Program-made: the position numbers and the translations under genes
The notes under the pieces: model-generated
What the model was told of the DNA's origin: nothing
Database searches by the model: none
Seen by the model: only the letters and a program-made list of their open reading frames with translations
Assembly: GCA_041600715.1 (NCBI GenBank)
Contig: JBFIJM010000002.1
Span: 5,770 to 69,769, forward strand
DNA length: 64,000 bases
Direction of reading: 5' to 3'
From: Candidatus Saccharimonadales bacterium
Lineage (GTDB): Bacteria; Patescibacteriota; Saccharimonadia; Saccharimonadales; 2-12-FULL-41-12
Shown: positions 3,044 through 61,753 of the stretch, piece by piece
How the letters are laid out: each line of letters opens with the position of its first letter
Position numbering within the stretch: the stretch's first letter is position 1

Positions 3044-3045
3044 TT

Positions 3046-43900: not shown

Positions 43901-43927
43901 AGTTTCGGTATTAAATTTTCAATAAAG

Positions 43928-44044
43928 TTAACTATTACATTTTACTTCTATGAGAAGGACTATGAACGCAATTATCACAGTGATATTAAACACCCTTCTA
44001 AATACAGCCCATAGCCATTCTATCCATCTCTTTAGATCACTCAT
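43928..44044 (-). CDS. 38-aa membrane mini-protein (below cut-off)
   Basis: My translation is MSDLKRWIEWLWAVFRRVFNITVIIAFIVLLIEVKCNS*. Its start overlaps the upstream stop (ATGAGTGA). Confidence 0.3.
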   Translation of the reverse strand: MSDLKRWIEWLWAVFRRVFNITVIIAFIVLLIEVKCNS

Positions 44045-44585: not shown

Positions 44586-44637
44586 TTGTTTAAAATTTAG
44601 GTTAATAATTAATTGATAGTGATTGTTCGGTGTTAAA
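44586..44637 (-). promoter_or_regulatory. conserved leftward intergenic element, copy A
   Basis: Gene-sense sequence is TTAACACCGAACAATCACTATCAATTAATTATTAACCTAAATTTTAAACAA-ATG. Confidence 0.55.
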
Positions 44638-44997
44638 TTAATTTTGTTCTTCCAACCATTTGTAGTGGTCATCTATTATTTTCCTGTCAGGTTTTTTATA
44701 CCAAAATAGAAACTCAATAAGTATTTTACACAACATTTGTTGTCGTGTATGGTAATCAAACCATTGAAATGTAACCCTAAACTTTTGGTATTTATGTTCC
44801 ATTTTCCAGTGATTTCTACCAAGCTCCAAATAGACCCCTGTTTCTTGTTCTATTATTTCAGCTATATTCATTAGCTCTGAGTAAGACTCATGATACTTAA
44901 CGCCATCCCTTTCATCCTCAAGGAACTCCTTTATTACCTGAATCCCCTCAGTTGACGGACTAAAATGATCTTTTTTTGTTGTCTTTAATTTTTTCAT
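44638..44997 (-). CDS. hypothetical protein
   Basis: 119-aa ORF. Confidence 0.6.
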   Translation of the reverse strand: MKKLKTTKKDHFSPSTEGIQVIKEFLEDERDGVKYHESYSELMNIAEIIEQETGVYLELGRNHWKMEHKYQKFRVTFQWFDYHTRQQMLCKILIEFLFWYKKPDRKIIDDHYKWLEEQN

Positions 44998-45002
44998 GTC
45001 TC

Positions 45003-45257
45003 TTATTTTACTTTAATGAATATATCAGTACTTGTTTTATTCCAGTCAACCCTAGCTAGGTTGCCTTTCTGTAGGGCTAAGTACTCTTTAGCCACTACTG
45101 GGTCAATCTTTTCGTTCTTAGCATAACGGACTCCTGTTATCAGCGTAAATGTTTCCACACCATTGGTATCCATAACGGATTTTATTGCCGTTGATCCCAT
45201 TCCGTTTGTTTTGGCGACTGCCATTTCTTGCTCTAATTGTTTTAATGTGTCAATCAT
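45003..45257 (-). CDS. hypothetical protein (start trimmed)
   Basis: The ORF track gives 45003..45314. Its N-terminal 19 codons are read-through of the repeat element, so I prefer the Met at 45257 (MIDTLKQ...). Confidence 0.55.
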   Translation of the reverse strand: MIDTLKQLEQEMAVAKTNGMGSTAIKSVMDTNGVETFTLITGVRYAKNEKIDPVVAKEYLALQKGNLARVDWNKTSTDIFIKVK

Positions 45258-45307
45258 GATTTTAAAATTTAGGTTAATAATTAATTGATAGTGATTGTTC
45301 GGTGTTA
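45258..45307 (-). promoter_or_regulatory. conserved leftward intergenic element, copy B
   Basis: Gene-sense sequence is TTAACACCGAACAATCACTATCAATTAATTATTAACCTAAATTTTAAAATC-ATG, nearly identical to copy A. Confidence 0.55.
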
Positions 45308-45679
45308 ACAACAATTACAGTCATCTATATCTTTTCCATTACGACATAGAGTACCATCTAATAAATCCTCCTTATTTTCGTTATACCACTTAATAAATTC
45401 TACTACTACCCTGTATAGGTCTCCAATATTACTGAATGACCTAATTGGTATCTTGTCATCAAGAATGGAATCATTATCCATCCATCCACCTACCACATCA
45501 ATACATTTGTGATAAACAGGCATTAACCAATCCCAAGAGGTGTCAAATAGTAAATCATCAAATGTATTATCTTTTGTGTAGGATAGCTTTAAATTTCCCT
45601 CATTGTCATACCATCCTATCGGGGTGTTTTGCATCCCCATAAATTCTGCTATTAGCTTATTGTTTTCTGTTGTTTTCAT
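45305..45679 (-). CDS. hypothetical protein (start trimmed)
   Basis: The ORF track gives 45305..45736. The Met at 45679 (MKTTENNKLIAEFMG...) is preceded by AAGGAGGA at 6-nt spacing and avoids a 41-nt overlap. Confidence 0.6.
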   Translation of the reverse strand: MKTTENNKLIAEFMGMQNTPIGWYDNEGNLKLSYTKDNTFDDLLFDTSWDWLMPVYHKCIDVVGGWMDNDSILDDKIPIRSFSNIGDLYRVVVEFIKWYNENKEDLLDGTLCRNGKDIDDCNCC

Positions 45680-45695
45680 AATTAGTCCTCCTTGT

Positions 45696-45932
45696 TTATG
45701 TTGTGTAAATAACTGTATCAATACCTTTCTTCTCATCTACAAAGAAAGCTGCACCCCCATCATTCCCTTCATCATCTTTCTGAAGCACCATAAAACTGCC
45801 GTCATCAAAGATTATTGCCAATGGATTACTGTGCCACCCCATATCTTCCATTTCTTCAGACGTAAGGTATCTTGTCTCCTTAATAGTTTTTCCTACTAAG
45901 AGTTCTGACATTTTCTTATCATGTTTACTCAT
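45696..45932 (-). CDS. hypothetical protein
   Basis: 78-aa ORF. Confidence 0.55.
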   Translation of the reverse strand: MSKHDKKMSELLVGKTIKETRYLTSEEMEDMGWHSNPLAIIFDDGSFMVLQKDDEGNDGGAAFFVDEKKGIDTVIYTT

Positions 45933-45956
45933 ATTCTAATGCCTGTTTCCAGGTCT

Positions 45957-46358
45957 TTAATGGTTATTATTAGTGATAGTGTTTATTCGGTCTATTTGCT
46001 GATCCATTATCATTGATGCCCTTTCCTCTCTTGTTAAGCGTTTAATCTTCCCCTCAAGCTGTTTAATCTTCCTCTTTAGGTTAATAACCGTAATCGACTT
46101 AGGGTCTTCCATATACTTCCGACCATCAGCAGTCACCTTAAACTTAGCCCCCCTACCGTCTTTAAATAGTAGTTCATCTGCCTCCCACCTAGCTATATTG
46201 ATTGAGTAGTAGCCCTGGCGATACACAAAGTCCCTATGGAGATTGCCTTGGGCTACCCATATAAACAACTGCACCTGCTTTCTGGTTGCTCCACCTCTAG
46301 TCTTAGCGATCCTGCGAAAGACATAACGCTGAATATTATTTACTCGTTCCATCATCAT
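45957..46358 (-). CDS. hypothetical protein
   Basis: 133-aa basic ORF. Confidence 0.55.
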   Translation of the reverse strand: MMMERVNNIQRYVFRRIAKTRGGATRKQVQLFIWVAQGNLHRDFVYRQGYYSINIARWEADELLFKDGRGAKFKVTADGRKYMEDPKSITVINLKRKIKQLEGKIKRLTREERASMIMDQQIDRINTITNNNH

Positions 46359-46608
46359 TGGATTTAGTTAAAAACTCCTCAGCTATACTCTGAGATATTT
46401 GGTGGATGTCTAACCCTAAATCGGAACACTCCCTCTTTAATTCATCTCTCTCGGAGCACAACTCCTTGGACACTCTGCCTCCCACATAATCTGAGGTTTC
46501 ATGTACACAGTCCGACAGGAAGTATATTCCGGTTATTTCTATTAGGTTTCGGAAGAACTCTTCTGTTCTTCTCATTGTTTCGACAATTTCTTTCGCTGTT
46601 ATTTTCAT
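46336..46608 (-). CDS. hypothetical protein
   Basis: 90-aa ORF. Confidence 0.55.
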   Translation of the reverse strand: MKITAKEIVETMRRTEEFFRNLIEITGIYFLSDCVHETSDYVGGRVSKELCSERDELKRECSDLGLDIHQISQSIAEEFLTKSNDDGTSK

Positions 46609-46658
46609 GACTTTAAATTTAGTACCGAAAGTTCGGTGTTAATAATAATTGATAGTGA
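46609..46658 (-). promoter_or_regulatory. conserved leftward intergenic element, copy C (shuffled module order)
   Basis: Gene-sense sequence is AATCACTATCAATTATTATTAACACCGAACTTTCGGTACTAAATTTAAAGTC-ATG. It contains an ACCGAA/TTCGGT palindrome. Confidence 0.5.
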
Positions 46659-47225
46659 TTACTTACCTGTCATCTTAAGATACTTAAAGATGTACCCTAA
46701 TGCGAGAGACACTCCTTCCTCAACACTTATGTAGTCATAAGTCCTAAGTGAGGCAGAACTACTTAGCCCGCTATTTCTGTCTGAATTAGTCCACCCCATA
46801 TCTTTTAGGTAGGTTCTCTTAAACCCACCCTCTAACACAAATAGAGACAGAGCCCTTCCTCTGGACTCATACCCAATATTAGACTCTATTAACAAGAAGG
46901 TATGACCTCTAAACACAAAGGTCTTTTCATTGGGAAGTATATCTTTGACTTCCACTACTGGTTCAGCTACTAACTCAAGGAAGTCCTCAACATCAATATC
47001 CTGAAATGATTGTACGGTTTTTTTAGGTTGCTTACCTTTACCTTTAAGGACTGATAGTGAAATACTTTCTCCGTCTATAATTACTGATATTTGTGTTTCG
47101 TCATCCACATCAAAATTGAAGTGTCCAACACCGAACTCTTTAAGTAGTTCGTCATCAATATTCCCATAGGTCTTTTCGGCTAATGTAGCCATTGCTGATA
47201 CTCTTTTTGGCAAACTTGTTCTCAT
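46659..47225 (-). CDS. hypothetical protein
   Basis: 188-aa ORF. Confidence 0.6.
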   Translation of the reverse strand: MRTSLPKRVSAMATLAEKTYGNIDDELLKEFGVGHFNFDVDDETQISVIIDGESISLSVLKGKGKQPKKTVQSFQDIDVEDFLELVAEPVVEVKDILPNEKTFVFRGHTFLLIESNIGYESRGRALSLFVLEGGFKRTYLKDMGWTNSDRNSGLSSSASLRTYDYISVEEGVSLALGYIFKYLKMTGK

Positions 47226-47252
47226 GATAATATATTTTAGGTTAATAATTAA
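47226..47252 (-). promoter_or_regulatory. conserved leftward element, copy D (proximal half only)
   Basis: Gene-sense sequence is AATTAATTATTAACCTAAAATATATTATC-ATG. Confidence 0.45.
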
Positions 47253-48443
47253 TTACGCACTCTTTTGATTTCTTAATCTTTCTAATGACAATTCAACATA
47301 CTCTTCAATAGTCATGTCGAGGTCTTCAGCAGCACTAGACAACCTGTCTAATGACTCCTCTTGTTCGGACTTAGGATCATCATCATCTAAGTCCAACCCC
47401 ATGTCATCATAGAAGTCTACAGCGTCATCTACTGTAGCTGGGCCATAGGAGTCACAATTAAAGCAGTAGTTTTTTTCAGTTAGTTCATCAAGCAGCACCT
47501 CCCTACTACTACAATGCACACAATAATCTAGTGACACCGGAACATCATCCTCTTCAGTTGTTTCGATAGATGATAGTGGTGTTACCCTTCCAGGGTTCCA
47601 ATCCCAATCCCAATAGCTACTATGACCTGTTCTTCCTGAATAACCGCTATAGCCTCCGTATGGTGTTCGTGCAACCTTTCTATCTTCATCAGGCACTAGC
47701 CACATCTGTCCTGCCATAGCCTCAAATATTTCCAAGACAAACTCTAACGTCTCATCCACCTCACTGATTACAATGAACTCATTGTCAGAGTGTGGATCAT
47801 AGTACCCACATGACATATTCGCAACACACACCCCAAGTCCGTTGGTTACTAGCTGACACACATCAGTTAGTCCACCACTTGTTTCAGCCCTACTCCATTT
47901 GTCTAGTATTGCTGAGATGCCATGGCTGAACTCACTTGAGAACAGCTTGGTTCCGTATATCTCATTAACGAAATCCTTGTATCCTTTCCTGTCGCATTGC
48001 AGGGCGAACTCTACATCTTTAAAGAAGGACATATCTGCATCTGCACTACCGACACATCCGACCTCCTCATCTCTAAAGAAAGCTGCTTTACATACATCAA
48101 CCTCCTTGAGTATCTGTAGTGCCACAAACACACCGACCTTATCATCCCCTCCAATTCCAACTCGCTCCATAGTATCCCCATCTATTGAGAATAGTCTATC
48201 GCCAGAGTTGAACAGCAGGAAGTTATTAACAAGGTCGTGAACTGTGTCTGTGTGAGCAACAATACATGGGTAGCTTTCTGCCTCCCCTTTAGTGACGTAG
48301 ATGTTCTGCTTATCATTCACAACAGTTACCCCTTCGATCTGGGATAGCTCATTGAGAATAAAGGCAGTCATCTGCTCAGTTTTATACGATGTCGTTTGTA
48401 TGCACATCGTTTTGCATAGGTCTTTATATCTACTTTTATTCAT
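47253..48443 (-). CDS. M20/M42-type metallopeptidase-like protein with C-terminal zinc ribbon and acidic tail
   Basis: 396 aa. AHTDTV, GGDDKVG and RDEEVGCVGS fit the metal-ligand motifs of peptidase clan MH. Also has CVHC...CFNC near the C-terminus. Confidence 0.55.
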   Translation of the reverse strand: MNKSRYKDLCKTMCIQTTSYKTEQMTAFILNELSQIEGVTVVNDKQNIYVTKGEAESYPCIVAHTDTVHDLVNNFLLFNSGDRLFSIDGDTMERVGIGGDDKVGVFVALQILKEVDVCKAAFFRDEEVGCVGSADADMSFFKDVEFALQCDRKGYKDFVNEIYGTKLFSSEFSHGISAILDKWSRAETSGGLTDVCQLVTNGLGVCVANMSCGYYDPHSDNEFIVISEVDETLEFVLEIFEAMAGQMWLVPDEDRKVARTPYGGYSGYSGRTGHSSYWDWDWNPGRVTPLSSIETTEEDDVPVSLDYCVHCSSREVLLDELTEKNYCFNCDSYGPATVDDAVDFYDDMGLDLDDDDPKSEQEESLDRLSSAAEDLDMTIEEYVELSLERLRNQKSA

Positions 48444-48497
48444 AGTTATTTATTTTATTGATTTATAATTAATTGATAGTGAATGTTCGGTGTTATG
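48444..48497 (-). promoter_or_regulatory. conserved leftward intergenic element, copy E
   Basis: Gene-sense sequence is ATAACACCGAACATTCACTATCAATTAATTATAAATCAATAAAATAAATAACT-ATG. Confidence 0.5.
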
Positions 48498-49776
48498 CGG
48501 CAGCGGCATCATCTTCATCAGAAGGTAGCACCCAATTTCCATCGTCATTCATCTCATACCCTTCAGCTTCATAAGCAGCAGCAACATGGCCTTCGTGAAC
48601 GTCCATGCCTAACTCTTCAAGATAAATTAAATCAACCTCTCCGTTATAGTAGTCTGTTCCGTCATATCCACAGGTAACAATGTCATCACATAGAACATAG
48701 CCTCCGTATGAAGCTACATAGACAACATCATCATTATGAGAACTTGTCCATTGTCCATTAGGCAATTGAACAGCATCTTCACTCAAGATAGACACATCGT
48801 TAACGTCATCATACGTACATTCATCTTGGTGAGCCCAATCATCACGACACTCTAGGTAGTTCATATCGTCAACATGGAATCTATCACCCCTAACACAGCA
48901 CTCACGATAATCTTCACCACCCTGTCTACCTCCTCCTGTTTCGTTACAGACATACTCATGAGATGAATTACAATCGTTGCTCGTAGTTCCTTCTGACATA
49001 TACTTGAAGGTATCCATGTAAGGCCAATGGTCATGCTCTGTGTTTAGTGAGAATGTAAGCCTCTCAGTAAAACGGTCTCCACCAGGATTCACCCAATCAA
49101 CATCGTCATCGTATGATTGTCTATACTTACGGTTAAGACCGTTATCCTTAGCATAGTTTATGAACTTCTCTACAGTTGCGTTTGTCCCGTAGATTCTATC
49201 CATCCACACACCATCCCACAGCAAGGCTCGACCTAATAGTTTTCCTCCCTTGACTAGGATAACCATTTGGACTAGCTGAGGGTTCTTTACGTACACATCG
49301 AAGCACTCAGGGATGTTGTGCCTCATGCAAGAATTTGATAGTGTATCGGTGTTATCAGCGTACCTTGATCCGTTGTACCAGTAGGCGATGTCGTCACCCT
49401 TAACGATACTAAACTCCCCATCGGACACTTCTGCCTTAAGGAAGTTAACTAGGTTTTCGAGGTCTGCATCTATGTACTCAAACCGAGGCACTTGCTCTGT
49501 AAGAACCTTCTTTAAGACCTTTCCATATTTACCTTCTTGCCGGTTTTCCCTGCTCCAAGATTCATTTCCATCGTCGGCCTCGCTCACAATGGTTTGTTTT
49601 TTTGGTGGACAGAATGTCATCACCTTATCCTTTCTGATAGTGATGTTTCTCAAACTGTCCTCATGATACTCGTATTTAGCGAGTCGCGTCAACATCTTAG
49701 CTACTTTATTGTCTGTTTTCGACAATATCTCATAAAAGCTAGTGGACACTAATTTCAATTTAGTTGCTCTCTGCAT
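48493..49776 (-). CDS. hypothetical protein, acidic Asp/Cys/Tyr-rich C-terminal half
   Basis: 427-aa ORF. No family recognised. Confidence 0.65.
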   Translation of the reverse strand: MQRATKLKLVSTSFYEILSKTDNKVAKMLTRLAKYEYHEDSLRNITIRKDKVMTFCPPKKQTIVSEADDGNESWSRENRQEGKYGKVLKKVLTEQVPRFEYIDADLENLVNFLKAEVSDGEFSIVKGDDIAYWYNGSRYADNTDTLSNSCMRHNIPECFDVYVKNPQLVQMVILVKGGKLLGRALLWDGVWMDRIYGTNATVEKFINYAKDNGLNRKYRQSYDDDVDWVNPGGDRFTERLTFSLNTEHDHWPYMDTFKYMSEGTTSNDCNSSHEYVCNETGGGRQGGEDYRECCVRGDRFHVDDMNYLECRDDWAHQDECTYDDVNDVSILSEDAVQLPNGQWTSSHNDDVVYVASYGGYVLCDDIVTCGYDGTDYYNGEVDLIYLEELGMDVHEGHVAAAYEAEGYEMNDDGNWVLPSDEDDAAAA

Positions 49777-49826
49777 TTTAATTGATTTTGGTTAGTAATT
49801 GATTGATAACTGATTTTCGGTGTTAA
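49777..49826 (-). promoter_or_regulatory. conserved leftward intergenic element, copy F
   Basis: Gene-sense sequence is TTAACACCGAAAATCAGTTATCAATCAATTACTAACCAAAATCAATTAAA-ATG. Confidence 0.5.
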
Positions 49827-49987
49827 GACTTCCTGTCTATACCCATTGGTATAAACGATATAAGAACAAACGACACCACACCAAAGAAAAATGCTATAGG
49901 CATTAGTCCCAGGTGTTCTGCTGTTATTGATAGGATTATACTCAGCACTATGCAAACTACACAGACTGTTGTTTCTGATTTTTTCAT
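49823..49987 (-). CDS. 54-aa two-TM membrane protein (below cut-off)
   Basis: My codon-by-codon translation is MKKSETTVCVVCIVLSIILSITAEHLGLMPIAFFFGVVSFVLISFIPMGIDRKS*. Preferred over ORF-track 49755..49955, which reads through the repeat element. Confidence 0.5.
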   Translation of the reverse strand: MKKSETTVCVVCIVLSIILSITAEHLGLMPIAFFFGVVSFVLISFIPMGIDRKS

Positions 49988-50040
49988 TACTTTAGGTTTT
50001 GGTTAATAATTGATTTTCGTGAATAATATGAGCGTGATTA
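49988..50040 (-). promoter_or_regulatory. conserved leftward element, copy G (AATCACGCTCAT variant)
   Basis: Gene-sense sequence is TTAATCACGCTCATATTATTCACGAAAATCAATTATTAACCAAAACCTAAAGTA-ATG. Confidence 0.45.
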
Positions 50041-50595
50041 ACCTTCTAGGTCTTTATTGCTCCTAATGACTTTGTTTCTAATCCTGGTGATGATGTATCC
50101 ATCACTTAAAGAGGTAGACTCTCCATAACTTAGTAATGACATTTTATCTATAACTTCTTCTATCTCCGAAAACATCAGGCCTCCTCCATACCCCTTCATA
50201 TCTGCTATCGTAAAATTAATTGGTGTCATTTCTCCGAACTCATCCAATAAAGTGAACTGCTTGTCTTCCATAGTTTTAATGAAATCCTCCTCCATTTGGA
50301 TGTACATCTTCTTGATTTCGATTGTTTTCTCTAGCACATAGTTGAAGTCGTGCTCTTCAATGTTGTTGTATGAGTGGGCTGTATCAAACCCTAAGACAAT
50401 ATAATCTCCAATATCTTTATTGTAGGTACATTCTTCCCCACATTTGTCCGACATATCTTGGTCGTATTGACTAATTAAGTTAGCAACCCTTGAGTCTTTA
50501 GGTATCATAACATACCCACAACCCCAACCAGTTTTGGCTGTATTTATCCATTCTCTGTCGTACCCAACAAGGTACATTTGAAATTCTTTTTTCAT
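50038..50595 (-). CDS. hypothetical protein
   Basis: 185-aa ORF. Confidence 0.6.
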   Translation of the reverse strand: MKKEFQMYLVGYDREWINTAKTGWGCGYVMIPKDSRVANLISQYDQDMSDKCGEECTYNKDIGDYIVLGFDTAHSYNNIEEHDFNYVLEKTIEIKKMYIQMEEDFIKTMEDKQFTLLDEFGEMTPINFTIADMKGYGGGLMFSEIEEVIDKMSLLSYGESTSLSDGYIITRIRNKVIRSNKDLEG

Positions 50596-50655
50596 GATAT
50601 ATAATTTAGGTTAATACTTTCGGTGTTAAAAGGTGATAGTGATTTTTCGGTGTTA
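50596..50655 (-). promoter_or_regulatory. conserved leftward element, copy H (distal box duplicated)
   Basis: Gene-sense sequence is GTAACACCGAAAAATCACTATCACCTTTTAACACCGAAAGTATTAACCTAAATTATATATC-ATG. Confidence 0.5.
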
Positions 50656-51123
50656 CTTCTTATCGAAGTTCCAAGTGTACCCCATTTGACCAAGGAAGTA
50701 GTATGTCTCTCCGAATAGTTCTTCTGCATGGGCATGGTGGGTAAACAGTTCACCACATGAGTTCTCAATAATAGTGAGCGTACCATCCTTAAAAGTTAGT
50801 GTCTGCCCTTCATCCTCTCCCCAATCATAAGTTAGCTCCTTACAGAGGCTCTCAATGTGCTTCTCGTGGATGTATGGCATAGCCCATCCGTTCCATCTCT
50901 CATTCTTATTGATGACGGCATCGTATTTCTCTCCGTCATCGAAGTATGCTACGCCCTGGACGTATACCTGTGGCACGAAGTCCACCTCGGTTACTGATAC
51001 TGCATCAAACTTCTCTATTGTGAACCCGGTTCCACCTAATAGGTAGCCTCTATCGTTCTTGGTAGCGTATTGTTTGTTACCGTCTTTCCGTAGTACTTCG
51101 TACCATTGTGTTTTGTTGCTCAT
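50653..51123 (-). CDS. hypothetical protein
   Basis: 156-aa ORF. Confidence 0.6.
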   Translation of the reverse strand: MSNKTQWYEVLRKDGNKQYATKNDRGYLLGGTGFTIEKFDAVSVTEVDFVPQVYVQGVAYFDDGEKYDAVINKNERWNGWAMPYIHEKHIESLCKELTYDWGEDEGQTLTFKDGTLTIIENSCGELFTHHAHAEELFGETYYFLGQMGYTWNFDKK

Positions 51124-51286
51124 ATCTATAATTTTTGGGATTAATACTGATTTTCGGTGTTGCCTTACTGTCCTGAAATGAGCGTGATTGCTTGTCGTAT
51201 CTTGCCTTAGCAGTACGATAGAACTCAGCGTAGTATTCCTGGTAGGTCGGCCTGTGATCTATGAATAGGTCTAGTTGTCTACTCAT
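51077..51286 (-). CDS. hypothetical protein (3' end uncertain)
   Basis: 69-aa ORF. Its last ~20 codons read through element copy I and overlap the next gene by 47 nt. Confidence 0.4.
   Translation of the reverse strand: MSRQLDLFIDHRPTYQEYYAEFYRTAKARYDKQSRSFQDSKATPKISINPKNYRYEQQNTMVRSTTERR
51124..51190 (-). promoter_or_regulatory. conserved leftward element, copy I
   Basis: Gene-sense sequence is AATCACGCTCATTTCAGGACAGTAAGGCAACACCGAAAATCAGTATTAATCCCAAAAATTATAGAT-ATG. Confidence 0.45.
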
Positions 51287-51521
51287 GACCTATCTCCCAT
51301 TGGTATATGTCTAGCACATCCTTAGCGGATAGCTTGTCGAACTGCATATCGAATAGCTTCACATACGTTAGCTTATCAATCCTGCTTAGACTTCTAAACC
51401 AATCGTTAGCTACGCATAGCTCTAGGTGTCTATCCATCTCGGCCTTCACCTTGTCTTTGGTCTCTTGAGTGACCATCTCGCCTACCTTGTCAAAGGCCCA
51501 GCCTATTTTTCGTTTGCTCAT
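51279..51521 (-). CDS. hypothetical protein
   Basis: 80-aa ORF. Confidence 0.55.
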   Translation of the reverse strand: MSKRKIGWAFDKVGEMVTQETKDKVKAEMDRHLELCVANDWFRSLSRIDKLTYVKLFDMQFDKLSAKDVLDIYQWEIGHE

Positions 51522-51535
51522 GACATTTCGGTGTT
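51522..51535 (-). promoter_or_regulatory. short form of the leftward element
   Basis: Gene-sense sequence is TTAACACCGAAATGTC-ATG; the TAA is the upstream stop codon. Confidence 0.4.
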
Positions 51536-51773
51536 AATTATTAGTAAAATAGAACTCAGACAGTATGTACCCTACCTCACAAGTCTTAACCTGCTCAGTA
51601 TAGTCTATACCATCCCCATTCCTTTCTATTTCTTGTCTTAGCTTGCCTGTTGAGGCTATAACGTGTAGCTCCCATTCCAACTGATTTAACTTCTCCAGTA
51701 GGTATTGGTATGCTAGTTCAGCTACGAACGCATAAAGCTGCTCAAGGCTGATTGATGCTCTAGGTTCTTTCAT
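51534..51773 (-). CDS. hypothetical protein
   Basis: 79-aa ORF. Confidence 0.55.
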   Translation of the reverse strand: MKEPRASISLEQLYAFVAELAYQYLLEKLNQLEWELHVIASTGKLRQEIERNGDGIDYTEQVKTCEVGYILSEFYFTNN

Positions 51774-51775
51774 AG

Positions 51776-51949
51776 CTATCGGATTACTCTTATTCTTCGT
51801 TTACGAACTAATATCCCATTGATGAACTTCCCAATGATGTCGTACTGTCCTTTGCCATCGTGTTCGGTGTCAATGATTCTGTACTCAGGGATACATTTAA
51901 CTTCATGTTCCTTTTGTGGCGCGTTGCCTCTCTGCTTTGGCTTTTTCAT
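51776..51949 (-). CDS. 57-aa basic protein (below cut-off)
   Basis: My translation is MKKPKQRGNAPQKEHEVKCIPEYRIIDTEHDGKGQYDIIGKFINGILVRKRRIRVIR*. Its stop lies 2 nt before the next ATG. Confidence 0.45.
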   Translation of the reverse strand: MKKPKQRGNAPQKEHEVKCIPEYRIIDTEHDGKGQYDIIGKFINGILVRKRRIRVIR

Positions 51950-52228
51950 TTTTAGATTGCCTGTTTCCAGGGCTTATTGGTTTGCCAGTTGGATGGGTAT
52001 TGCTCCCACTTACGCAGTCGTTCTGCTCCAACCGGTTTAGGTACTCTATTCTATTACCTTTTCATAACTCACCTCCTTTTTTTCCTACGCCCATTATGAG
52101 CGTGATTAACATTCCCTACTACTTGCTACAAGAGCAGGATGAACCGTGACTCACTGCGTTACATACTATGCACACAGGCATTGACACGGCTATTCTAATT
52201 GGTTCCCTCATGATTTCCGGTTTTATGG

Positions 52229-52414
52229 CTACATAGCCGTTAGTATTACTCTTAACTTTAATTCATTTGCGAATCGCTCCGCTGCTACCAGGCAGTACGA
52301 GGCTTTCTCATTGTCCCCTTCAAAGAAAGCGTCTGAAGCCTTCTCATTGAAAAATTGTACTCGTTCTACTAGCTCGTGGAACGATAACTCATTCATGTCT
52401 TCGTATGCTTTCAT
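52229..52414 (-). CDS. hypothetical protein
   Basis: 61-aa acidic helical ORF. Confidence 0.5.
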   Translation of the reverse strand: MKAYEDMNELSFHELVERVQFFNEKASDAFFEGDNEKASYCLVAAERFANELKLRVILTAM

Positions 52415-52440
52415 AACATTTCGGTGTTAATTAATAATTG
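52415..52440 (-). promoter_or_regulatory. short form of the leftward element
   Basis: Gene-sense sequence is CAATTATTAATTAACACCGAAATGTT-ATG. Confidence 0.4.
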
Positions 52441-52493
52441 TCCACTAATAGGGCATTGATCCCTCTGGTTAGTCATTCTAAACTAGTGGATAT

Positions 52494-52531
52494 AAAAAAA
52501 GGCCACAACTATTAAGTCGTGACCTTTTTTC
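52494..52531 (-). terminator. intrinsic terminator after gene 52543..53019 (A-run/T-run on both sides, possibly bidirectional)
   Basis: AGGCCAC (52500-06) pairs with GTGACCT (52519-25) with one mismatch. It is flanked by A7 and T6 runs. Confidence 0.5.
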
Positions 52532-52542
52532 TGATTGTGCTA

Positions 52543-53019
52543 CTACTTACCTAAATCAGCTTTCTTGTCCATCGCCTTTTGTTGTTTCTCAGCTTTGATG
52601 GCTCTCGCAGTGTTCAGGTCGTTCTTTTTCAGGATTTCGTTGCACATCAGTGCCACCTGATGAACGCTAACAAACGGCAAGTCCTTGTACTTGCTTTCGT
52701 CCTTGTGTAGGCACAGACTTTTGAAGCTGATTGCCTCCATTTGTTTCGGTGTTAAGACCTTCTTAGCTTGTGACACGTACCTTTTGAACGCTTGTGATAT
52801 TGTTACCGCGTCTAGGTGTACTAATCTACTTGCCTCTAATAGTCGGTCGTAGCTTCCTGCCTCCGCCTTATTGAAGTTCGCACTCTTCTCTGCTTTTAGC
52901 AAGATAGCCTTGCTTACCTTTGGTATTGCTACCTTTTTTGGCTCAGCCTTAGCCTTAGCCTTTTCTTGTGGTTTGGTAGCCTTGCTACTCTTCGCCACAC
53001 TCTTTCCAATTTTTGTCAT
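52543..53019 (-). CDS. Lys/Ala-rich N-terminus protein, first leftward early gene
   Basis: 158 aa. The N-terminal 45 aa are KAK-rich (histone-like composition). The gene stands alone between the long leader region and a terminator. Confidence 0.6.
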   Translation of the reverse strand: MTKIGKSVAKSSKATKPQEKAKAKAEPKKVAIPKVSKAILLKAEKSANFNKAEAGSYDRLLEASRLVHLDAVTISQAFKRYVSQAKKVLTPKQMEAISFKSLCLHKDESKYKDLPFVSVHQVALMCNEILKKNDLNTARAIKAEKQQKAMDKKADLGK

Positions 53020-54228
53020 TGGTTGCTCGTGCCTATTTCTAGGGCTTTATTGGTTAGCCAAAACCTCGGGGTTCGCTCCCGTCCAGACGGATCTGGGCCA
53101 AGTCTACTTGGAGGTTTCGGTATTAATAACTGATTGAATCTCAGGTTCTCTCATTCACCACAGTTAAGGGCATCACCTTGCATTTATTAGTCGGATGTAT
53201 TTTATTCGTCCGACGGAGGTACTTCTAATTTCCCTCCACACATTCGCATTTATTGTATTACACCCTAGACTCTCTCTAGGTTGCCGAATAGCCTTCGACT
53301 GCTATTCGTTCCCCTGTATCGGGGCGGAAGGCGCATCTTTTTACGCTATCTGATTTATAGTGCAGTTTTCACCGTTCAGAACCTCGTAGGGTATACTAGG
53401 GCATAAACCCACACCTATTAATGACATTTAACACTTTTCAAACGCAACCCCTCAAAGAAGGTAAAACAAAATTCAGTTTTAAGGTATAGAGCGCTTTTCC
53501 GTCGAATTTTTAATGTGGTACGGTTCCCACGGGTTTTTTACGCCTAATCTCGCTATGTCCCCACCTTACTAGTACTGTGCCTTTCAACTCTGTAGTGGCA
53601 TCTGCCTGATGACTCGCATCGTTTACTACTCAAGGCACTATATGTTTGTGCGGTTAATCAATTCGTGATGTGTTGTTGAATTGATAGTTCAAATGTATGA
53701 AAACTTATATGTATTTTCCAAGCACAAAATTTAAATCAGGTGTAAAGAATTGATTATCAGATAATTAAACTTGATATATAGCACTGGATTTAACCATAGA
53801 AAAGTTGTAATTAGGGGTAGAAACTAGGGAAATTCGAGGGGTTTATACACACAAAGCAACCCCATAAAAGGGGATATATAAGACAAGGGGCAAACAACCC
53901 CACCAACGCACACAATAATAGGTAACACATTCATTTACAGCACTTTAGTATAAAAGAATTGTCATATAATTAGAATTATGTTAAATAGAAGGGGCTAAAA
54001 ATATAGCTAATCCAGGTAAAGGATCACACGAGGTAACATAGGCTAACTCGCTGAAAAACAATCCCTTAAAAAATCGGGGGGTGGGGTAAAAAGAACGGAT
54101 TTCGTATCCCGTAGTCGCGCCCCCGGTTGTATAATATTACCCACCCCCCACATCTGCGTGAAAAAAAGGTGGCAAAAAGCTTGTTTTTATGAAAAGTAAA
54201 GTGTTACATTTGTACACTCATCACGACG
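53020..54228. other. 1.2-kb ORF-free, hairpin-rich divergent control region (candidate ncRNA/leader/origin)
   Basis: Apart from the 3' end of ORF 52871..53137(+), which I reject, no ORF-track entry of 60 aa or more lies here on either strand. Visibly richer in G/C runs than the flanks, with multiple stems (see findings). Confidence 0.55.
54205..54212 (+). promoter_or_regulatory. candidate -7 box TACATTTG for rightward early genes
   Basis: Exact TAnnTTTG 17 nt upstream of the ATG at 54229, with a TTG about 24 nt further upstream. Confidence 0.3.
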
Positions 54229-54471
54229 ATGGAGACAAACAATTGTGTTATTATGGGTATAAAAGAGCAAATATTGGATGAAATAGCGTTAAAGAAGCGT
54301 GTTCGGGGGTCCGGTGTTAATTTAAAGGCTATAGCTAAGGATACTGGTTTGAGTTATAACGGGTTGTTGAAGTGGCGTAACGAGCCTGAGAGGAGTATAG
54401 GTGATAAGAGCCTGGATAAGATAGCCAAGGCGTTGGGAAAGCGTATAATATTGATAAATCGGGATATATGA
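54229..54471 (+). CDS. Cro/XRE-type helix-turn-helix regulator
   Basis: 80 aa. LKAIAKDTGLSYNGLLKWRN...LDKIAKALG is a typical XRE HTH pattern. First rightward gene after the control region. Confidence 0.6.
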   Translation: METNNCVIMGIKEQILDEIALKKRVRGSGVNLKAIAKDTGLSYNGLLKWRNEPERSIGDKSLDKIAKALGKRIILINRDI

Positions 54472-54866
54472 GTGATTATGTAAAGGGCCAGGAGGATTTG
54501 ATAAAGCATATCAAGGATGGTATGGTTGACATTGTGAACACTACGACTGGATCAGCGATGTATGAGTCAATAATGGAGTTTTTGATGGCGTTGGAGCCTA
54601 TTGATGATTGGACTTTGTTTAAGACGGGCGAAGGTGAGGATGAGTCTAATCATTTGGAGTTGGATAGGGGTACTTATGAGTACTTGCGAGGGAGAGTTGC
54701 CGAAATAGTGGAGGAGTATGAGGAGGGGGGTATTATGTTGGTTACTGATAATGATCCTGAGAACATGAATATTCATGCCTGGGAATTTGCCTCGAAGAAG
54801 GGGTGGGAGTTCTCACTGATGATTGGAAAAAAGACTAAATGGAAGACATTCACCCCTAAAAACTAA
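54468..54866 (+). CDS. hypothetical acidic protein
   Basis: 132-aa ORF ending in ...FTPKN, encoded by the junction motif. Confidence 0.6.
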   Translation: MSDYVKGQEDLIKHIKDGMVDIVNTTTGSAMYESIMEFLMALEPIDDWTLFKTGEGEDESNHLELDRGTYEYLRGRVAEIVEEYEEGGIMLVTDNDPENMNIHAWEFASKKGWEFSLMIGKKTKWKTFTPKN

Positions 54867-54871
54867 ACAAG

Positions 54872-54979
54872 ATGATTGAAATATTAAGAGGAAGTATTTT
54901 TTTACAGATATTATTATTTGCGGTAATTTGTCCTGCTCTTATGGCTTATTGTGTGTATAAATCAAAACCTAAAAACTAA
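54872..54979 (+). CDS. 35-aa membrane mini-protein (below cut-off)
   Basis: My translation is MIEILRGSIFLQILLFAVICPALMAYCVYKSKPKN*. Bounded by junction motifs. Confidence 0.4.
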   Translation: MIEILRGSIFLQILLFAVICPALMAYCVYKSKPKN

Positions 54980-54983
54980 ACAG

Positions 54984-55094
54984 ATGGAAAATACAATTTT
55001 AATACTGCCGATTTTATGTATTTCTTGGAACGATGTAAACGAAAAAGAATTAACAATAGGATGGCTAACTTTTACTTGTACAATAAAATTTTAA
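54984..55094 (+). CDS. 36-aa mini-protein (below cut-off)
   Basis: My translation is MENTILILPILCISWNDVNEKELTIGWLTFTCTIKF*. Bounded by junction motifs. Confidence 0.35.
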   Translation: MENTILILPILCISWNDVNEKELTIGWLTFTCTIKF

Positions 55095-55112
55095 CCCCTA
55101 AAAACTAAACAG

Positions 55113-55328
55113 ATGGAAGAAACATTAGAGGATTTAAAGAGGGAGTATATGAAAGAAATATATATAGCAAATATTAAAATCCAAGCCCTCACCAAAGAGA
55201 ACGAAGAACTGAGGGAGGCAAGTAAGACGCTTTTAAGTTTATGCGACCTTGAGGACAATAGCGGTAGATTGGTTCATAAGGAGGCAGATAAAGAGATTTT
55301 AAGAAAACTTTTAACCCCTAAAAACTAA
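55113..55328 (+). CDS. KENEEL-motif mini-protein, paralogue 1
   Basis: 71 aa with ALTKENEELR and the C-terminus LLTPKN. Confidence 0.55.
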   Translation: MEETLEDLKREYMKEIYIANIKIQALTKENEELREASKTLLSLCDLEDNSGRLVHKEADKEILRKLLTPKN

Positions 55329-55332
55329 ACAG

Positions 55333-55587
55333 ATGGAAAGACCAAAAGACGAAGATTTTAGAAACAACGAAAGCGGAACAATCACATATTTATTTGCTCT
55401 TGAAAAATATTGTGATGCCCTAACCAAAGAGAACGAAGAGTTGAGGAAGGATAAGAAGAAAAACTCTGAACTTTGGTTGGAGGAAACAGAGCTAACCGAC
55501 CAACTAAAAGTAAGGGTTAAGGAGTTGGAGTGGGAGAACGATAAGCTAATAAAGATAACTAACAAACTTTTAACCCCTAAAAACTAA
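55333..55587 (+). CDS. KENEEL-motif mini-protein, paralogue 2
   Basis: 84 aa with ALTKENEELR and the C-terminus LLTPKN. Confidence 0.55.
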   Translation: MERPKDEDFRNNESGTITYLFALEKYCDALTKENEELRKDKKKNSELWLEETELTDQLKVRVKELEWENDKLIKITNKLLTPKN

Positions 55588-55591
55588 ACAG

Positions 55592-55843
55592 ATGACACCA
55601 GAAAGAATAGAAGAGATACAAAAAACAACATCCTACCCAAATAGTGTAAGCGTTCAACAAGCATTGTTAACCGTATGGAATGAATGTGAGCAACCCCTCG
55701 CCAAAGAGAACGAAGAGCTGAAAAACCCCTGCTGTTGCAATTGTGGCAGTCATAATGTTGTGTGGTACGCTTTACAACAAGAGTTTCAGTGTACCGATTG
55801 TGATAATGAATGGGAATTAGGTGACTTGAAAATTAACCCCTAA
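55592..55843 (+). CDS. KENEEL-motif mini-protein, paralogue 3 (with Cys4 zinc-ribbon)
   Basis: 83 aa with PLAKENEELK followed by CCCNCG...CTDC. Confidence 0.55.
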   Translation: MTPERIEEIQKTTSYPNSVSVQQALLTVWNECEQPLAKENEELKNPCCCNCGSHNVVWYALQQEFQCTDCDNEWELGDLKINP

Positions 55844-55853
55844 AAACTAAACA

Positions 55854-55964
55854 ATGATTGAGGTAATAATATTCTGGATCTCGCTTAATGCCTTTTTTAT
55901 AGGTATATTGTACTGTATTAAGTACAGGTGGGACAGACAGGAAGATAAAAAGAGGAGGGAGTAA
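55854..55964 (+). CDS. 36-aa membrane mini-protein (below cut-off)
   Basis: My translation is MIEVIIFWISLNAFFIGILYCIKYRWDRQEDKKRRE*. Its MIE- start resembles the 54872 gene, and it has TAATG overlap with the next gene. Confidence 0.4.
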   Translation: MIEVIIFWISLNAFFIGILYCIKYRWDRQEDKKRRE

Positions 55965-56395
55965 TGGACTTGTCCCTGGTCTCTACATACCACAACCTGT
56001 TTTACCTTGTCAAGAGGGAGAAGGAGCTGTTCGTTAAGGCTAATAACCTGAAGAAGTTCGACAGGGTGCAGTACCTACTGTGGATGAACTATATTATTGA
56101 GAGGAGAGGCCACTGCTATGATGCTGATATAGCCTATTTGAAGAAGACTAAGATCAATAAGCTCCCTATGTTAAGTGTTAGGAGGATGCTTTATGTTATG
56201 AAGGGAGAGAAGCTAGTAGATTATGTTAGGTCAGAGAAGCTGCACCCGGTTCTTAAGCGACGATATATTATCACCGAACAAGGGTATCGAATCCTAGACA
56301 ACTACACCTCCCTGTTTACTAAGGCCGAGAGAGACATAAGCTATTTATTGAAAAAAGTACACACCGATGCCGATAAGTTGATAGAAAAAGACTAA
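55964..56395 (+). CDS. winged-helix DNA-binding protein (PadR/MarR-like)
   Basis: 143 aa. RRMLYVMKGEKLVDYVRSEK...RRYIITEQGYRIL fits a wHTH wing pattern. Confidence 0.45.
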   Translation: MDLSLVSTYHNLFYLVKREKELFVKANNLKKFDRVQYLLWMNYIIERRGHCYDADIAYLKKTKINKLPMLSVRRMLYVMKGEKLVDYVRSEKLHPVLKRRYIITEQGYRILDNYTSLFTKAERDISYLLKKVHTDADKLIEKD

Positions 56396-56450
56396 ATTTG
56401 GAGACTTAGTAATGACTCTCTGCAACTTTGTTCATTATTATTTTAGGTTA

Positions 56451-56482
56451 AGGCTCCTGGGTATATCTCGGGAGCTTTTTTA
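56451..56482 (+). terminator. intrinsic terminator
   Basis: GCTCCTG (56453-59) pairs with CGGGAGC (56469-75), followed by TTTTTT. Confidence 0.6.
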
Positions 56483-56525
56483 TATTAAATAATTTCCTAT
56501 CCTTGGTGAAACAAAACAAACCACC

Positions 56526-56903
56526 ATGAAAGGAACAACATACGCAGCTACTACTGTTGCTAAAAATAAAAAGCCTAAGAAGAAGAGTTTCACCACAAAG
56601 ACCTCTAGAGGTAATATTAATGTCACATCCTCAAAAGACCCCGAATATAAACAGGGTAAAAAACATATAAAAGAGGATCAAAGACTAAGTGACGCATCAG
56701 GAAAGATACTAGAGTCTTATGCCAATAGAAACTCTTCCCCAAGAACAAGTATGTGGACAGGGAAAACAACCCAAGGGACATCTGTTCAAACAGCTAGAAA
56801 AAAGCTGGCTAAATCTGAGTTAGAAAGGAGAAAGAAAGTAAAAGAAGGGAATAGTGGAAAAAGAATATCCGGAAAAGAATCTGTCGGTGGAAACATGAGA
56901 TAA
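56526..56903 (+). CDS. basic Lys/Ser/Thr-rich protein
   Basis: 125-aa ORF between two terminators. Confidence 0.55.
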   Translation: MKGTTYAATTVAKNKKPKKKSFTTKTSRGNINVTSSKDPEYKQGKKHIKEDQRLSDASGKILESYANRNSSPRTSMWTGKTTQGTSVQTARKKLAKSELERRKKVKEGNSGKRISGKESVGGNMR

Positions 56904-56988
56904 TCATAACAACATAAGGATTTTTTTATATCTTTACCCCGAGCTTAATTTATTTTTCCATTTGTTAACTCAAGTCTTTTCCAACGAA

Positions 56989-57018
56989 CCCTCTGATTTT
57001 CAGGGGGTTTGCCTTTTT
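56989..57018 (+). terminator. intrinsic terminator
   Basis: CCCTCTG (56989-95) pairs with CAGGGGG (57001-07, one G-U pair), followed by TTTGCCTTTTT. Confidence 0.5.
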
Positions 57019-57108
57019 ATAGAAGTAAAACATTAAAAATTATTTAAGATTCTTGTAACATTAATTCGGATCCTGCGTTATAGTAAGTGAACCATAAAAT
57101 AATAAACC

Positions 57109-57573
57109 ATGAAAAAAGTTGCAGTAGTATTAGTAGGAATCTTATTAGCATTAACCACCCAGGCACAGTGCTTTGATAGATATTTTTCACCAAAAGAGTA
57201 TAAAGAAGTGTATGAGGAGCGATTTGATAAAGTAGGGTCAATACTATATCGGAAGTACTTAAGCACAAAGGGAGATACAGTCACCCTAAATTATGTTGAA
57301 GAGCACTCGTTCTCTGATAGGGAGTACTTCTTGAGGTATGAGGATGAGGCTATTGAGGTGTTTGGTCATTATTTCTTTAGTGAAGACTGTAGCTTCACAG
57401 TTGGAAAAGGGGACGATGAGTCTGAAATTTATGTTAGAACATACCACATGGAGGTTTCTGATGATTTTTTAGTGAGAGAGGTAATTGTAAAGTCAGATTA
57501 CGCAGACTTTCACAACCTACACAGCGTAACAATTAAAAAAATGGAAGGATACACCCATAGCTATATTTTCTAA
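57109..57573 (+). CDS. secreted/periplasmic protein with N-terminal signal peptide
   Basis: 154 aa. MKKVAVVLVGILLALTTQAQC is signal-peptide-like. The gene stands alone. Confidence 0.6.
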   Translation: MKKVAVVLVGILLALTTQAQCFDRYFSPKEYKEVYEERFDKVGSILYRKYLSTKGDTVTLNYVEEHSFSDREYFLRYEDEAIEVFGHYFFSEDCSFTVGKGDDESEIYVRTYHMEVSDDFLVREVIVKSDYADFHNLHSVTIKKMEGYTHSYIF

Positions 57574-57910: not shown

Positions 57911-58591
57911 ATGATAGAAAGGATTCCGAAGAGTTATGTGTTGGTTGAGGTAGATTCCTTATTCCAAGACAAAATTCTTTTCCAAGACGGTAGAGAGCTA
58001 CACATAGACCCTACCTACGAACCAGAGAAACACCACCAAACTTCAGGCATAGTTCATACTGTGCCTGATTCTTTGCATTTTGACCTTAAGGACATGGAGT
58101 TCTCTATGGAGTACGATGTCCCTATTGAACTCAAAAAGGGAGACAAAGTATTCTTCCACTACCTACAGATCTCAGACGCTATAAAAAATAAGATGCTTCT
58201 TACCATAGAGGGTAAGCTGCATATCTTTGTTAGATACGACAGCTGCTTTTGTGCATTGAGAGAAGATGAGATGGTTATGCTTAATGGGTGGATGCTACTT
58301 GAACCTTTCGGTACTACCGAAGAACTGACCTCCAACGTAATTGACACTAAGCTACCCTTCCATAGGAGGAAACCACACCCCTTAAAAGGCGAAATAACCT
58401 CTATTGGAACCCCTGTAAAACAGTACTTATGGAACAAACATGAGTCAGATAAAAATATTAATGTATCTTTGGGTGACAAAGTTATGTTTCTACCCCACAG
58501 TGACATACCCCTAGAATACGGTTTACACCAGAAGTTAGATAAGGTTTACTACAGGGTACAACGTAAGGATTTATTAAACAAAATTTTATAA
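57911..58591 (+). CDS. possible tandem GroES-like (double Cpn10 fold) protein
   Basis: 226 aa with two halves that each follow a Cpn10-like order. First half: YVLVEV...SGIVHTVP...KKGDKVFFHY...IFVRYDSCFCAL. Second half: WMLLEP...KGEITSIGTP...SLGDKVMFLPH...YYRVQRKDLL. Confidence 0.35.
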   Translation: MIERIPKSYVLVEVDSLFQDKILFQDGRELHIDPTYEPEKHHQTSGIVHTVPDSLHFDLKDMEFSMEYDVPIELKKGDKVFFHYLQISDAIKNKMLLTIEGKLHIFVRYDSCFCALREDEMVMLNGWMLLEPFGTTEELTSNVIDTKLPFHRRKPHPLKGEITSIGTPVKQYLWNKHESDKNINVSLGDKVMFLPHSDIPLEYGLHQKLDKVYYRVQRKDLLNKIL

Positions 58592-58592
58592 A

Positions 58593-58943
58593 ATGAAAAA
58601 TTTTATCGTTTACTCGAAAAAAAACGAAGACAGCGTAAAGAAAGTCGCTAACTTCAAAGCACAACACCCTAAGACAGTATTCATTGATGTTGATGACAAA
58701 AAAGCTATAGCTGAGGCTGAAGCAGGTATTAATGTTGGAAACAGAGTTACTTACCTTGACGCTCCTAAAGCAGCTAAAAAACCAGTAGCTAAGAAGGCTG
58801 AAACCAAGAAGGCTCCTGCCAAGAAAGCTCCTGCTAAAAAGGCTCCTGCTAAAAAGGCTCCTGCTAAGAAGGTAGCTAAGAAAGCACCTGCTAAGAAGAA
58901 AGCCCCGGCTAAGAAGAAAACGACTACCAAAAAGAAGAAGTAG
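58593..58943 (+). CDS. histone H1-like / AKKAP-repeat DNA-binding protein
   Basis: 116 aa. The C-terminal half is KKAPAKKAPAKKAPAKKAPAKKVAKKAPAKKKAPAKKK. Confidence 0.6.
   Translation: MKNFIVYSKKNEDSVKKVANFKAQHPKTVFIDVDDKKAIAEAEAGINVGNRVTYLDAPKAAKKPVAKKAETKKAPAKKAPAKKAPAKKAPAKKVAKKAPAKKKAPAKKKTTTKKKK
58806..58915 (+). repeat. tandem 15-nt coding repeat (AAGGCTCCTGCTAAA, giving KAPAK)
   Basis: Four near-identical units are followed by degenerate ones. Confidence 0.7.
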
Positions 58944-61692: not shown

Positions 61693-61753
61693 TCAGCAAT
61701 CTAAAATCTAAACATATTTTTTTATACCTTTGGTAAAATATTAAATTCCGAGT

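Follow-up and report, generated by a model that had tools for sequence, protein, structure and literature searches.

Why does each of six small genes lying in a row begin directly behind a copy of the same short sequence? The question is raised by a stretch of 64,000 nucleotides (nt) at positions 5,770 to 69,769 of contig JBFIJM010000002.1 (assembly GCA_041600715.1), the whole of which was analyzed, is called the window here, and belongs to a phage of Bacteroidota. An initial annotation, made from the letters alone, had described an array of mini-genes around 54850-55965, stitched together by a motif that supplies the stop codon of one gene and the ATG of the next, and had proposed that the array is a tandemly amplified cassette. 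The array is real, and its origin appears to be a different one. The explanation that we consider reasonably probable is that the motif is a linker with two purposes: in the mRNA it would be a translation start region that couples each mini-gene to the gene before it, and in the DNA it would be a handle by which mini-gene cassettes are recombined.

A stop-start linker repeated six times

A search of the window with TAACCCCTAAAAACTAAACAG, allowing up to three mismatches, returned six matches, every one on the + strand (positions 54850, 54963, 55092, 55312, 55571 and 55834), and none of 100 shuffles contained any match. The spacing is irregular, as had been claimed, with start-to-start distances of 113, 129, 220, 259 and 263 nt. 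All six copies, on the same strand, contain the 15-mer CCTAAAAACTAAACA without a mismatch, where 0 would be expected. The full linker reads TAACCCC-TAAAAAC-TAAACAG and is then followed by ATG. It consists of three heptads, each opened by a TAA, and the heptad spacing places a stop codon in every reading frame, at 18, 11 and 4 nt before the AUG. The copies are 21 to 31 nt long and end 0 to 2 nt from the following ATG. They are J1 (TCACCCCTAAAAACTAAACAAG, 54850-54871), J2 (CAAAACCTAAAAACTAAACAG, 54963-54983), J3 (TTTTAACCCCTAAAAACTAAACAG, 55088-55112), J4 (AAACTTTTAACCCCTAAAAACTAAACAG, 55305-55332), J5 (55564-55591, the same as J4 over 31 nt with the ATG included) and J6 (ATTAACCCCTAAAAACTAAACA, 55832-55853). 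J3 to J5 are the most alike, with exact identity over 27 to 31 nt. Matches with at most two mismatches all fall in 54850-55854, save one at 61700, and other three-mismatch matches in the window do not exceed the 4.3 expected by chance. No inverted repeat or palindrome was found in the linker, and an Rfam search of 53000-57000 gave no match.

The open reading frame (ORF) that starts at the ATG after each copy runs into the following copy (g1 to g5), and the product of the shuffle probabilities for the open frames of g1 to g6 is 2.7e-13. The claim that each copy joins two mini-genes holds with two small corrections, one at each border. The first copy ends a gene of 132 amino acids (54468-54866, +), an ORFan whose last codons, TFTPKN*, lie inside J1 and which has marginal matches only among 1.84e9 representative proteins. 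The last mini-gene, g6, ends without a linker, its stop overlapping the ATG of a 143-amino-acid gene (TAATG). The mini-genes, all on the + strand, are g1 (54872-54979; 35 residues, hydrophobic, single-span, MIE start, KPKN* end), g2 (54984-55094; 36 residues, ending IKF, its stop being the first TAA of J3), g3 (55113-55328; 71 residues, predicted coiled coil, TPKN end), g4 (55333-55587; 84 residues, a coiled-coil ORFan, TPKN end), g5 (55592-55843; an 83-residue mosaic with a KINP end, its stop being the second TAA of J6) and g6 (55854-55964; 36 residues, again hydrophobic and single-span with an MIE start). These gene ends, with TPKN occurring three times when the 132-residue protein is included, and the two MIE-initiated peptides are as the initial annotation gave them. 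The third TAA of the linker closes the 132-residue gene, g1, g3 and g4, the second closes g5 and the first closes g2. Since stops are used in all three frames, what is conserved is the nucleic acid and not the peptide, a point on which the earlier description was right. The mini-proteins had nothing in Pfam and PHROGs beyond coiled-coil or zinc-ribbon noise below threshold, and a search for homologues of g4 in 5.8e9 proteins found none besides g4 itself.

An artefact of assembly was dismissed as an explanation, because the ORFs are undamaged and both flanks recur in an independent assembly (Logan, SRR29257383). In that assembly one contig of the same phage (L018) ends at 54959, just before J2, and another (L017) resumes at 55926 inside g6, and no record of g3, g4 or g5 exists in it. 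The break positions are not accounted for by exact repeats, the sole exact repeat of at least 31 nt being J4/J5, and either the array may vary within the population or coverage may simply have been low.

Operon context and translation start regions

The early-gene setting proposed for the array is borne out by its position in an early, variable region downstream of a Cro-like helix-turn-helix (HTH) gene. This gene, of Cro/C1 type (54229-54471, +; Pfam HTH_26 2.8e-5; PHROG transcriptional regulator), has its likely true start at 54253, which gives 72 residues. Just before it lies TACATTTG (54205-54212, +), a Bacteroidota-type -7 box (TAnnTTTG) and the only TAnnTTTG on the + strand in 53641-56393, which would be the promoter of the rightward operon. 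The same sequence is found on the - strand at 53697 as the mirror of the 54205 box, and GTGTTACATTTGTA is conserved in the relative L118. No terminator-like site was found inside the array, and the first terminator-like hairpin after it has a 12-bp stem and a T run (56450-56478, +). From these signals, the HTH gene, the 132-residue gene, g1 to g6 and the 143-residue gene probably form a single operon. The last of these (55964-56395, +) is conserved, forms the right border of the variable slot and has no Pfam or PHROG match reaching cut-off.

The divergent TACATTTG boxes (53682-53697 and 54205-54220) form an inverted pair 507 nt apart and flank a region between the leftward and rightward operons that measures 1.1 kb and is mostly non-coding. 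A 32-nt stretch in it (53959-53990) is 91% conserved in L118. On the leftward side there is a second repeat, TTAACACCGAA(A/C), with at least 14 copies on the - strand in 43900-53130, each 8-45 nt before a leftward gene start (for example at 44636, 45308, 46642, 49826, 50629, 51537, 52430 and 52755). Some of these copies lie within an element of about 56 nt that is 95% identical between 44581-44636 and 45253-45308. Because the distance of TTAACACCGAA to the ATG is variable, it resembles a phage-specific promoter or regulator site more than a start region.

The gene starts of the window lack Shine-Dalgarno sequences. In the other 79 window genes A makes up 58-66% of positions -13 to -10 and 52-59% of positions -6, -4 and -3, and an A-rich start profile of this kind promotes initiation in Flavobacterium johnsoniae (PMC6847099, from which the definition of positions -3, -6, -12 and -13 is taken). 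The linker fits this profile, with A at -6, -12 and -13 in J2 to J5 and in J1, which also has A at -3, and with A at -3 and -12 in J6. Its core contains zero G. Windows of 61 nt around the six linkers fold with 0 to -3.9 kcal/mol (z +0.5 to +1.9) and are less stable than shuffles, and the 20 nt before each array ATG have an unpaired probability at the 86th to 97th percentile of the transcript. When scored on the phage's own start profile, the linkers rank 14th to 42nd of 85 genes. Start-site selection alone is therefore insufficient to account for the exact identity of the copies, and this middling rank marks the linker as a copied ordinary start region rather than an exceptional one reached by convergence. 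The likeness of its TAACC..TAAA core to the leftward elements, pointed out in the initial annotation, is likewise real, but it is a genome-wide trait of start regions and not specific to the array. The 143-residue gene has AGGAGGGAG 3 nt before its ATG (55950-55966), which is Shine-Dalgarno-like and unusual, as the other genes of the phage lack one.

In the mRNA, then, the linker would serve as a Shine-Dalgarno-independent start region of the Bacteroidota kind, and a ribosome, whatever its frame, would be halted by one of the three phased TAA, 4-18 nt short of the next AUG. With a frame-independent stop and a nearby AUG, a mini-gene could be translated by coupling or reinitiation within one transcript, whatever gene precedes it. 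The earlier suggestion that the junction is a termination-reinitiation signal is thus plausible, judged from the position of the stops, the A residues and the unstructured, G-poor leader. In the DNA, the same copies would provide a short homology for recombination events that insert, delete, duplicate or exchange cassettes, and such events would explain why the linker copies are identical and the intervening genes are not. A second joint of this sort may exist within genes, in the form of a 16-nt island by which variable N-terminal modules would be connected to C-terminal modules.

Exchange of linker-bounded genes

The internal island CCAAAGAGAACGAAGA is exact at the three positions reported by the initial annotation (55192, 55424 and 55701), with 0.05 expected. 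Its first copy lies in g3 (55185-55227, +; GCCCTCACCAAAGAGAACGAAGAACTGAGG..., encoding ALTKENEEL), the second in g4 (55417-55459, +) and the third in g5 (55694-55720, +), where the sequence on either side is unrelated. In g5 the parts follow one another as a 34-residue N-terminal module, the island (LAKENEEL) and a CxxC...CxxC tail. The N-module (window 55592-55693; consensus MTxERIKEIQxxTAYPNSVSVQQALLxVWNECEQ) is present in 84 IMG/VR loci and 8 genome contigs with an unrelated tail every time; its identity is 60-85% over no fewer than 90 phage or prophage loci of Bacteroidota (among loci L026-L113). Some proteins that carry it are just 43-44 residues long, the module plus about 10 residues. 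The contigs of these relatives are assigned to Flavobacterium, Maribacter and Salegentibacter, and the N-module is also the site of the sole DNA match to the window among the cultured phages of INPHARED, 117 nt of Cellulophaga phage phi13:2. It had no match in Pfam, PHROG or, by profile search, PDB, and an AlphaFold2 model of g5 is poor (predicted local distance difference test score 55) and shows two helices only. The combination of a conserved head with a hypervariable tail suggests a domain for targeting or docking. Among proteins, P0002 from a 59.5-kb NCBI contig is the closest relative of g5; it consists of the N-module, LTKENEEL and a g4-like coiled-coil tail, and the C-terminal half of g4 is 55% identical to it. 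Since P0002 joins the N-module to a g4-like tail through LTKENEEL, the island appears as a joint between modules, and its nucleotide-exact conservation inside unrelated sequence indicates patchwise recombination. The island (55185-55210) also has 12 nt, CACCAAAGAGAA, in common with the linker of L082-L097, AACCTTTAACACCAAAGAGAAATG, in the same TKE frame; this likeness might be a fossil linker left by the fusion of two cassettes, or a coincidence.

Comparison loci were fetched through the N-module of g5, and several of them have a repeated sequence of their own just before the ATG: CTAAACAAACAAGACTA occurs five times in L070 and five times in L026, AACCTTTAAATCAGAATA seven times in L044, AATTTTAAAAACAAATAAGAT and AATTTAAAAAGAAATAAG nine times combined in L077, and AAACCTTTAACACCAAAGAGA is found in L082-L088. 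The same 16-mer stands at -17 to -2 before at least three ORF starts in 9 of 77 non-redundant loci, two of the nine being low-complexity, and before at least two starts in 22 of 77, whereas control 16-mers at -70 to -55 gave 0 and 2 of 77 loci, respectively. The linkers differ between phage lineages, and the types TTTAACACCAAAGAGA, CTAAACAAACAAGACTA and TTAAAAAGAAATAAGA recur across non-redundant loci from different metagenomes. Between the copies lie unrelated small ORFs, including single-span peptides like g1 and g6. In these lineages the linkers bound the DNA that has been exchanged. L082, L083, L084, L087 and L088, which come from four different metagenomes, have in common a linker-gene-linker block of about 153 nt that is 99-100% identical, with unrelated flanks on both sides. 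L044 and L031 have only 3980-4222 in common, with linkers at 3982 and 4198, and L070 and L085, whose flanks are 85-93% identical, differ by an indel of two cassettes that is bounded by linker copies. The identity of the exchanged cassettes in these contigs is 96-100%.

Other repeats were seen in the same loci. The arrays of L028, L032 and L035 have AAAGGAGGTGACAAATG as their repeated linker. In L048 (5170-6950) an element of about 45 nt ending in GTTCGTATATTGATGTATAAT occurs in 4-6 copies with a tiny ORF after each, and in L081 GTACCTTTGTAT, with a -7 box of TAnnTTTG type in it, occurs five times. Neither element belongs with the stop-start linkers, and both are probably promoters. A cassette in the linker-bounded array of L026 (4589-4843) encodes an 84-residue HNH endonuclease that could stimulate local recombination.

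The slot that holds the array varies among relatives of the window. Homologues of the 143-residue protein (P0013-P0015) are 55-67% identical to it, and the syntenic contigs L114-L119 are about 72% identical downstream. L118 and L119 have the order HTH gene, a single 76-residue gene and the 143-residue homologue, the HTH protein of L118 being 53% identical to that of the window, and L114-L117 have differing upstream genes followed by a 71-residue gene. The initial annotation had named conservation of the motif among related phages as a check, and no linker was found in L114-L119. It is therefore not a conserved lineage-wide signal, and the array together with the 132-residue gene is specific to the lineage of the window. 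Used as queries in IMG/VR, the flanking proteins gave no matches.

Several results weigh against a linker that serves both translation and exchange. INPHARED holds no close relative with the linker of the window, IMG/VR yielded 14 single-copy matches only, all of them ordinary gene starts, and JGI metagenomes yielded three single matches, about the chance level. As no relative carrying this linker was found, it is by analogy with the other lineages that the linker of the window itself may be said to mediate exchange. No recombinase was recognized in the window. Four of the linker copies have C, not A, at -3, which is suboptimal for initiation. Finally, the cultured relative phi13:2 has A-rich gene starts, but its first 40 kb contain no linker that is repeated exactly, which shows that not all of these phages have the trait.

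The explanation put forward by the initial annotation was a gene accordion, in which one mini-gene was tandemly amplified and its copies diverged until linker and island were left as the slowest-evolving remnants. The C-terminal halves of g3 and g4 are indeed homologous (46% over 56 residues, E=1e-5), g3, g4 and g5 have start linker, island and end linker in the same order, and J3 to J5, the most similar copies, are exact over 30-31 nt. The paralogy does not extend over the whole length of the units, as an accordion would have it: their DNA is essentially unalignable beyond the linkers and islands, g5 shares nothing but the 16-nt island, and g1, g2, g6 and the 132-residue gene are unrelated to g3-g5. 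The N-module of g5, moreover, has an independent history in its many phage loci, and patches of 100% identity in unrelated sequence are more readily explained by patchwise recombination than by divergence at a uniform rate. Because equivalent linkers delimit exchanged cassettes elsewhere, shuffling driven by recombination is the better account, and we regard an accordion as unlikely.

A slightly lower probability still is given to the idea that the linker is the site of a sequence-specific factor, either a translational repressor or an endoribonuclease of the phage with early mRNAs as its targets, like RegA and RegB of T4, or a repressor binding at stoperator-like sites. Such a factor would account for an identity over 15-31 nt that exceeds the needs of a generic start region, and for copies that share one orientation in an early operon beside an HTH gene and a 143-residue gene of unrecognized family. 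The differences in linker between phage lineages would also be expected. The distribution of the linker speaks against this idea, since no linker-like copy was found in the divergent promoter region (53020-54230) or elsewhere in the 64 kb, and relatives whose HTH and 143-residue proteins are homologous to those of the window lack the motif. The linker is neither palindromic nor structured, some arrays (L026 and L077) mix two linker types, and in other lineages the linker copies are recombination breakpoints.

That each linker is a phage-specific promoter for its own gene, a possibility raised by the initial annotation, is improbable. The repetition of the motif before each small early gene invites the comparison, and precedents exist in the promoter-early stem-loop (PeSL) cassettes of T4-like phages (PMC2839356) and the intergenic repeats of halovirus HF2 (PMC8707807). 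There is no TTTG or TAnnTTTG box in the linker, and sigma-70-like matches in 53000-57200 number 11 against 11.6 in shuffles, with none at a linker. Terminators between the genes are lacking, and the motif overlaps the upstream coding sequence and ends so close to the ATG that there is no room for a leader. A chance resemblance of generic AT-rich gene starts, to which one might ascribe the TAACC..TAAA look of this phage's gene starts in general and the single 15-20-mer copies before ATGs in unrelated viral and metagenome contigs (found in about the chance number), is effectively refuted by the shuffle statistics and by six exact 15-mers, four of the copies having at least 27 nt of identity, that lie inside 1.1 kb and recur at no other place in the window.

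For the window alone the result is a modest one: the feature is real and lineage-specific, and its proposed function as a linker for coupling and recombination rests on analogy. Taken together with the other loci, it raises the tentative possibility, which we would put below an even chance, that Bacteroidota phages use a small repertoire of stop-start linkers of about 20 nt as universal plugs for the exchange of mini-genes. A gene between two copies of one linker type could drop into any operon with the same type and would be translated at once, without a promoter or Shine-Dalgarno sequence of its own, because the linker supplies the all-frame stop and the start region. The array of the window would then be one docking rack, phages that trade host-takeover or anti-defence peptides would form communities defined by linker type, and the cassettes might travel as excised circles, as has been shown for PeSLs. 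Recombination at short conserved linkers is an old idea about what drives phage mosaicism, and clear cases are rare; PeSLs, the best studied, depend on promoter-terminator units in T4-like phages. The present case suggests a leaner solution for hosts whose ribosomes ignore Shine-Dalgarno sequences. If true, it would explain the turnover of the early ORFan repertoire in Bacteroidota phages, exchangeable small genes could be found in metagenomes by looking between linker copies, and a compact, frame-independent operon linker would be at hand for engineering Bacteroidota.

Some features elsewhere in the window may be recorded here. A full-length Cpn60/GroEL-type chaperonin (Pfam 5.5e-68) is encoded at 33751-35340 (-), and a 226-residue protein with a C-terminal Cpn10-like domain, conserved in L114-L119, at 57911-58591 (+). 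The ORF 58593-58943 contains a 15-nt tandem repeat (58773-58901) encoding (AKKAP)n, a lysine-rich, histone-H1-like tail on a 116-residue protein. Direct repeats of 38-88 nt (ACACACACAGGAGA.GT.AC.GGAG.TACAG...) begin at 2210, 2516 and 3172 (window 2210-3235) inside ORFs of 581 and 461 residues in the structural region, which suggests a repeated protein domain common to adjacent genes.

Comparison with known systems

Stoperators of the mycobacteriophage L5 type are short asymmetric sites that lie in one orientation at or near stop and start codons and in early transcription units; their sequence is that of the operator at the early promoter, and they are dispersed genome-wide. The linker of the window differs in both of the latter respects, with no copy at the promoters and an array confined to 1.1 kb. 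It also lacks what marks an integron-like attC site, namely an imperfect inverted-repeat site with an adjacent integrase, and no integrase was recognized among the 30 window ORFs scanned against Pfam.

The linker shares with the start regions of Bacteroidia (Baez et al. 2019, PMC6847099) the absence of a Shine-Dalgarno sequence, low structure and pairing, a run of A at about -13 to -9 and A at -6, as well as at -3 in J1 and J6. The generic start region is a loose preference in composition, whereas the linker is an exact repeat of 15-31 nt with stops in three frames. The linker also recalls the boundary or linker sequences of lambdoid phages (Susskind & Botstein 1978; Clark et al. 2001, as cited in PMC3029335), short conserved stretches between genes that were proposed to let otherwise unrelated modules undergo homologous recombination. 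At most mosaic joints of lambdoid phages and mycobacteriophages no such stretch is present (PMC3029335). In the window, by contrast, one genome carries six tandemly ordered copies of the sequence, which is at the same time a translation start region. The literature that was searched, which covers the field in part and is thus weak evidence of novelty, contained no description of repeated stop-start linkers in Bacteroidota phages.

The closest parallel is with the PeSL cassettes of T4-like phages (Arbiol et al. 2010, PMC2839356; Comeau et al. 2014, PMC4122927). In both systems short motifs are repeated through hyperplastic regions full of small ORFans, here a slot that varies among relatives and holds ORFans such as g4 and the 132-residue gene, and in both the motif reaches from the stop of one gene to the start of the gene after it. 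Among related T4-like phages, indels and replacements end at motif copies; breakpoints of this kind were seen here at the analogous linkers of other Bacteroidota phage lineages and not in the window, whose own motif no close relative was found to carry. A PeSL combines an early promoter of sigma-70 type with a stem-loop terminator and a Shine-Dalgarno sequence, and each ORFan is its own transcription unit. In contrast, the linker has only 21-31 nt, has no promoter box, stable hairpin or Shine-Dalgarno sequence, and lies inside what is probably one operon, where it would act, if at all, at the level of translation. Since both the early promoter and the stem-loop are lacking, the linker is a variant of the PeSL kind rather than a member of it.

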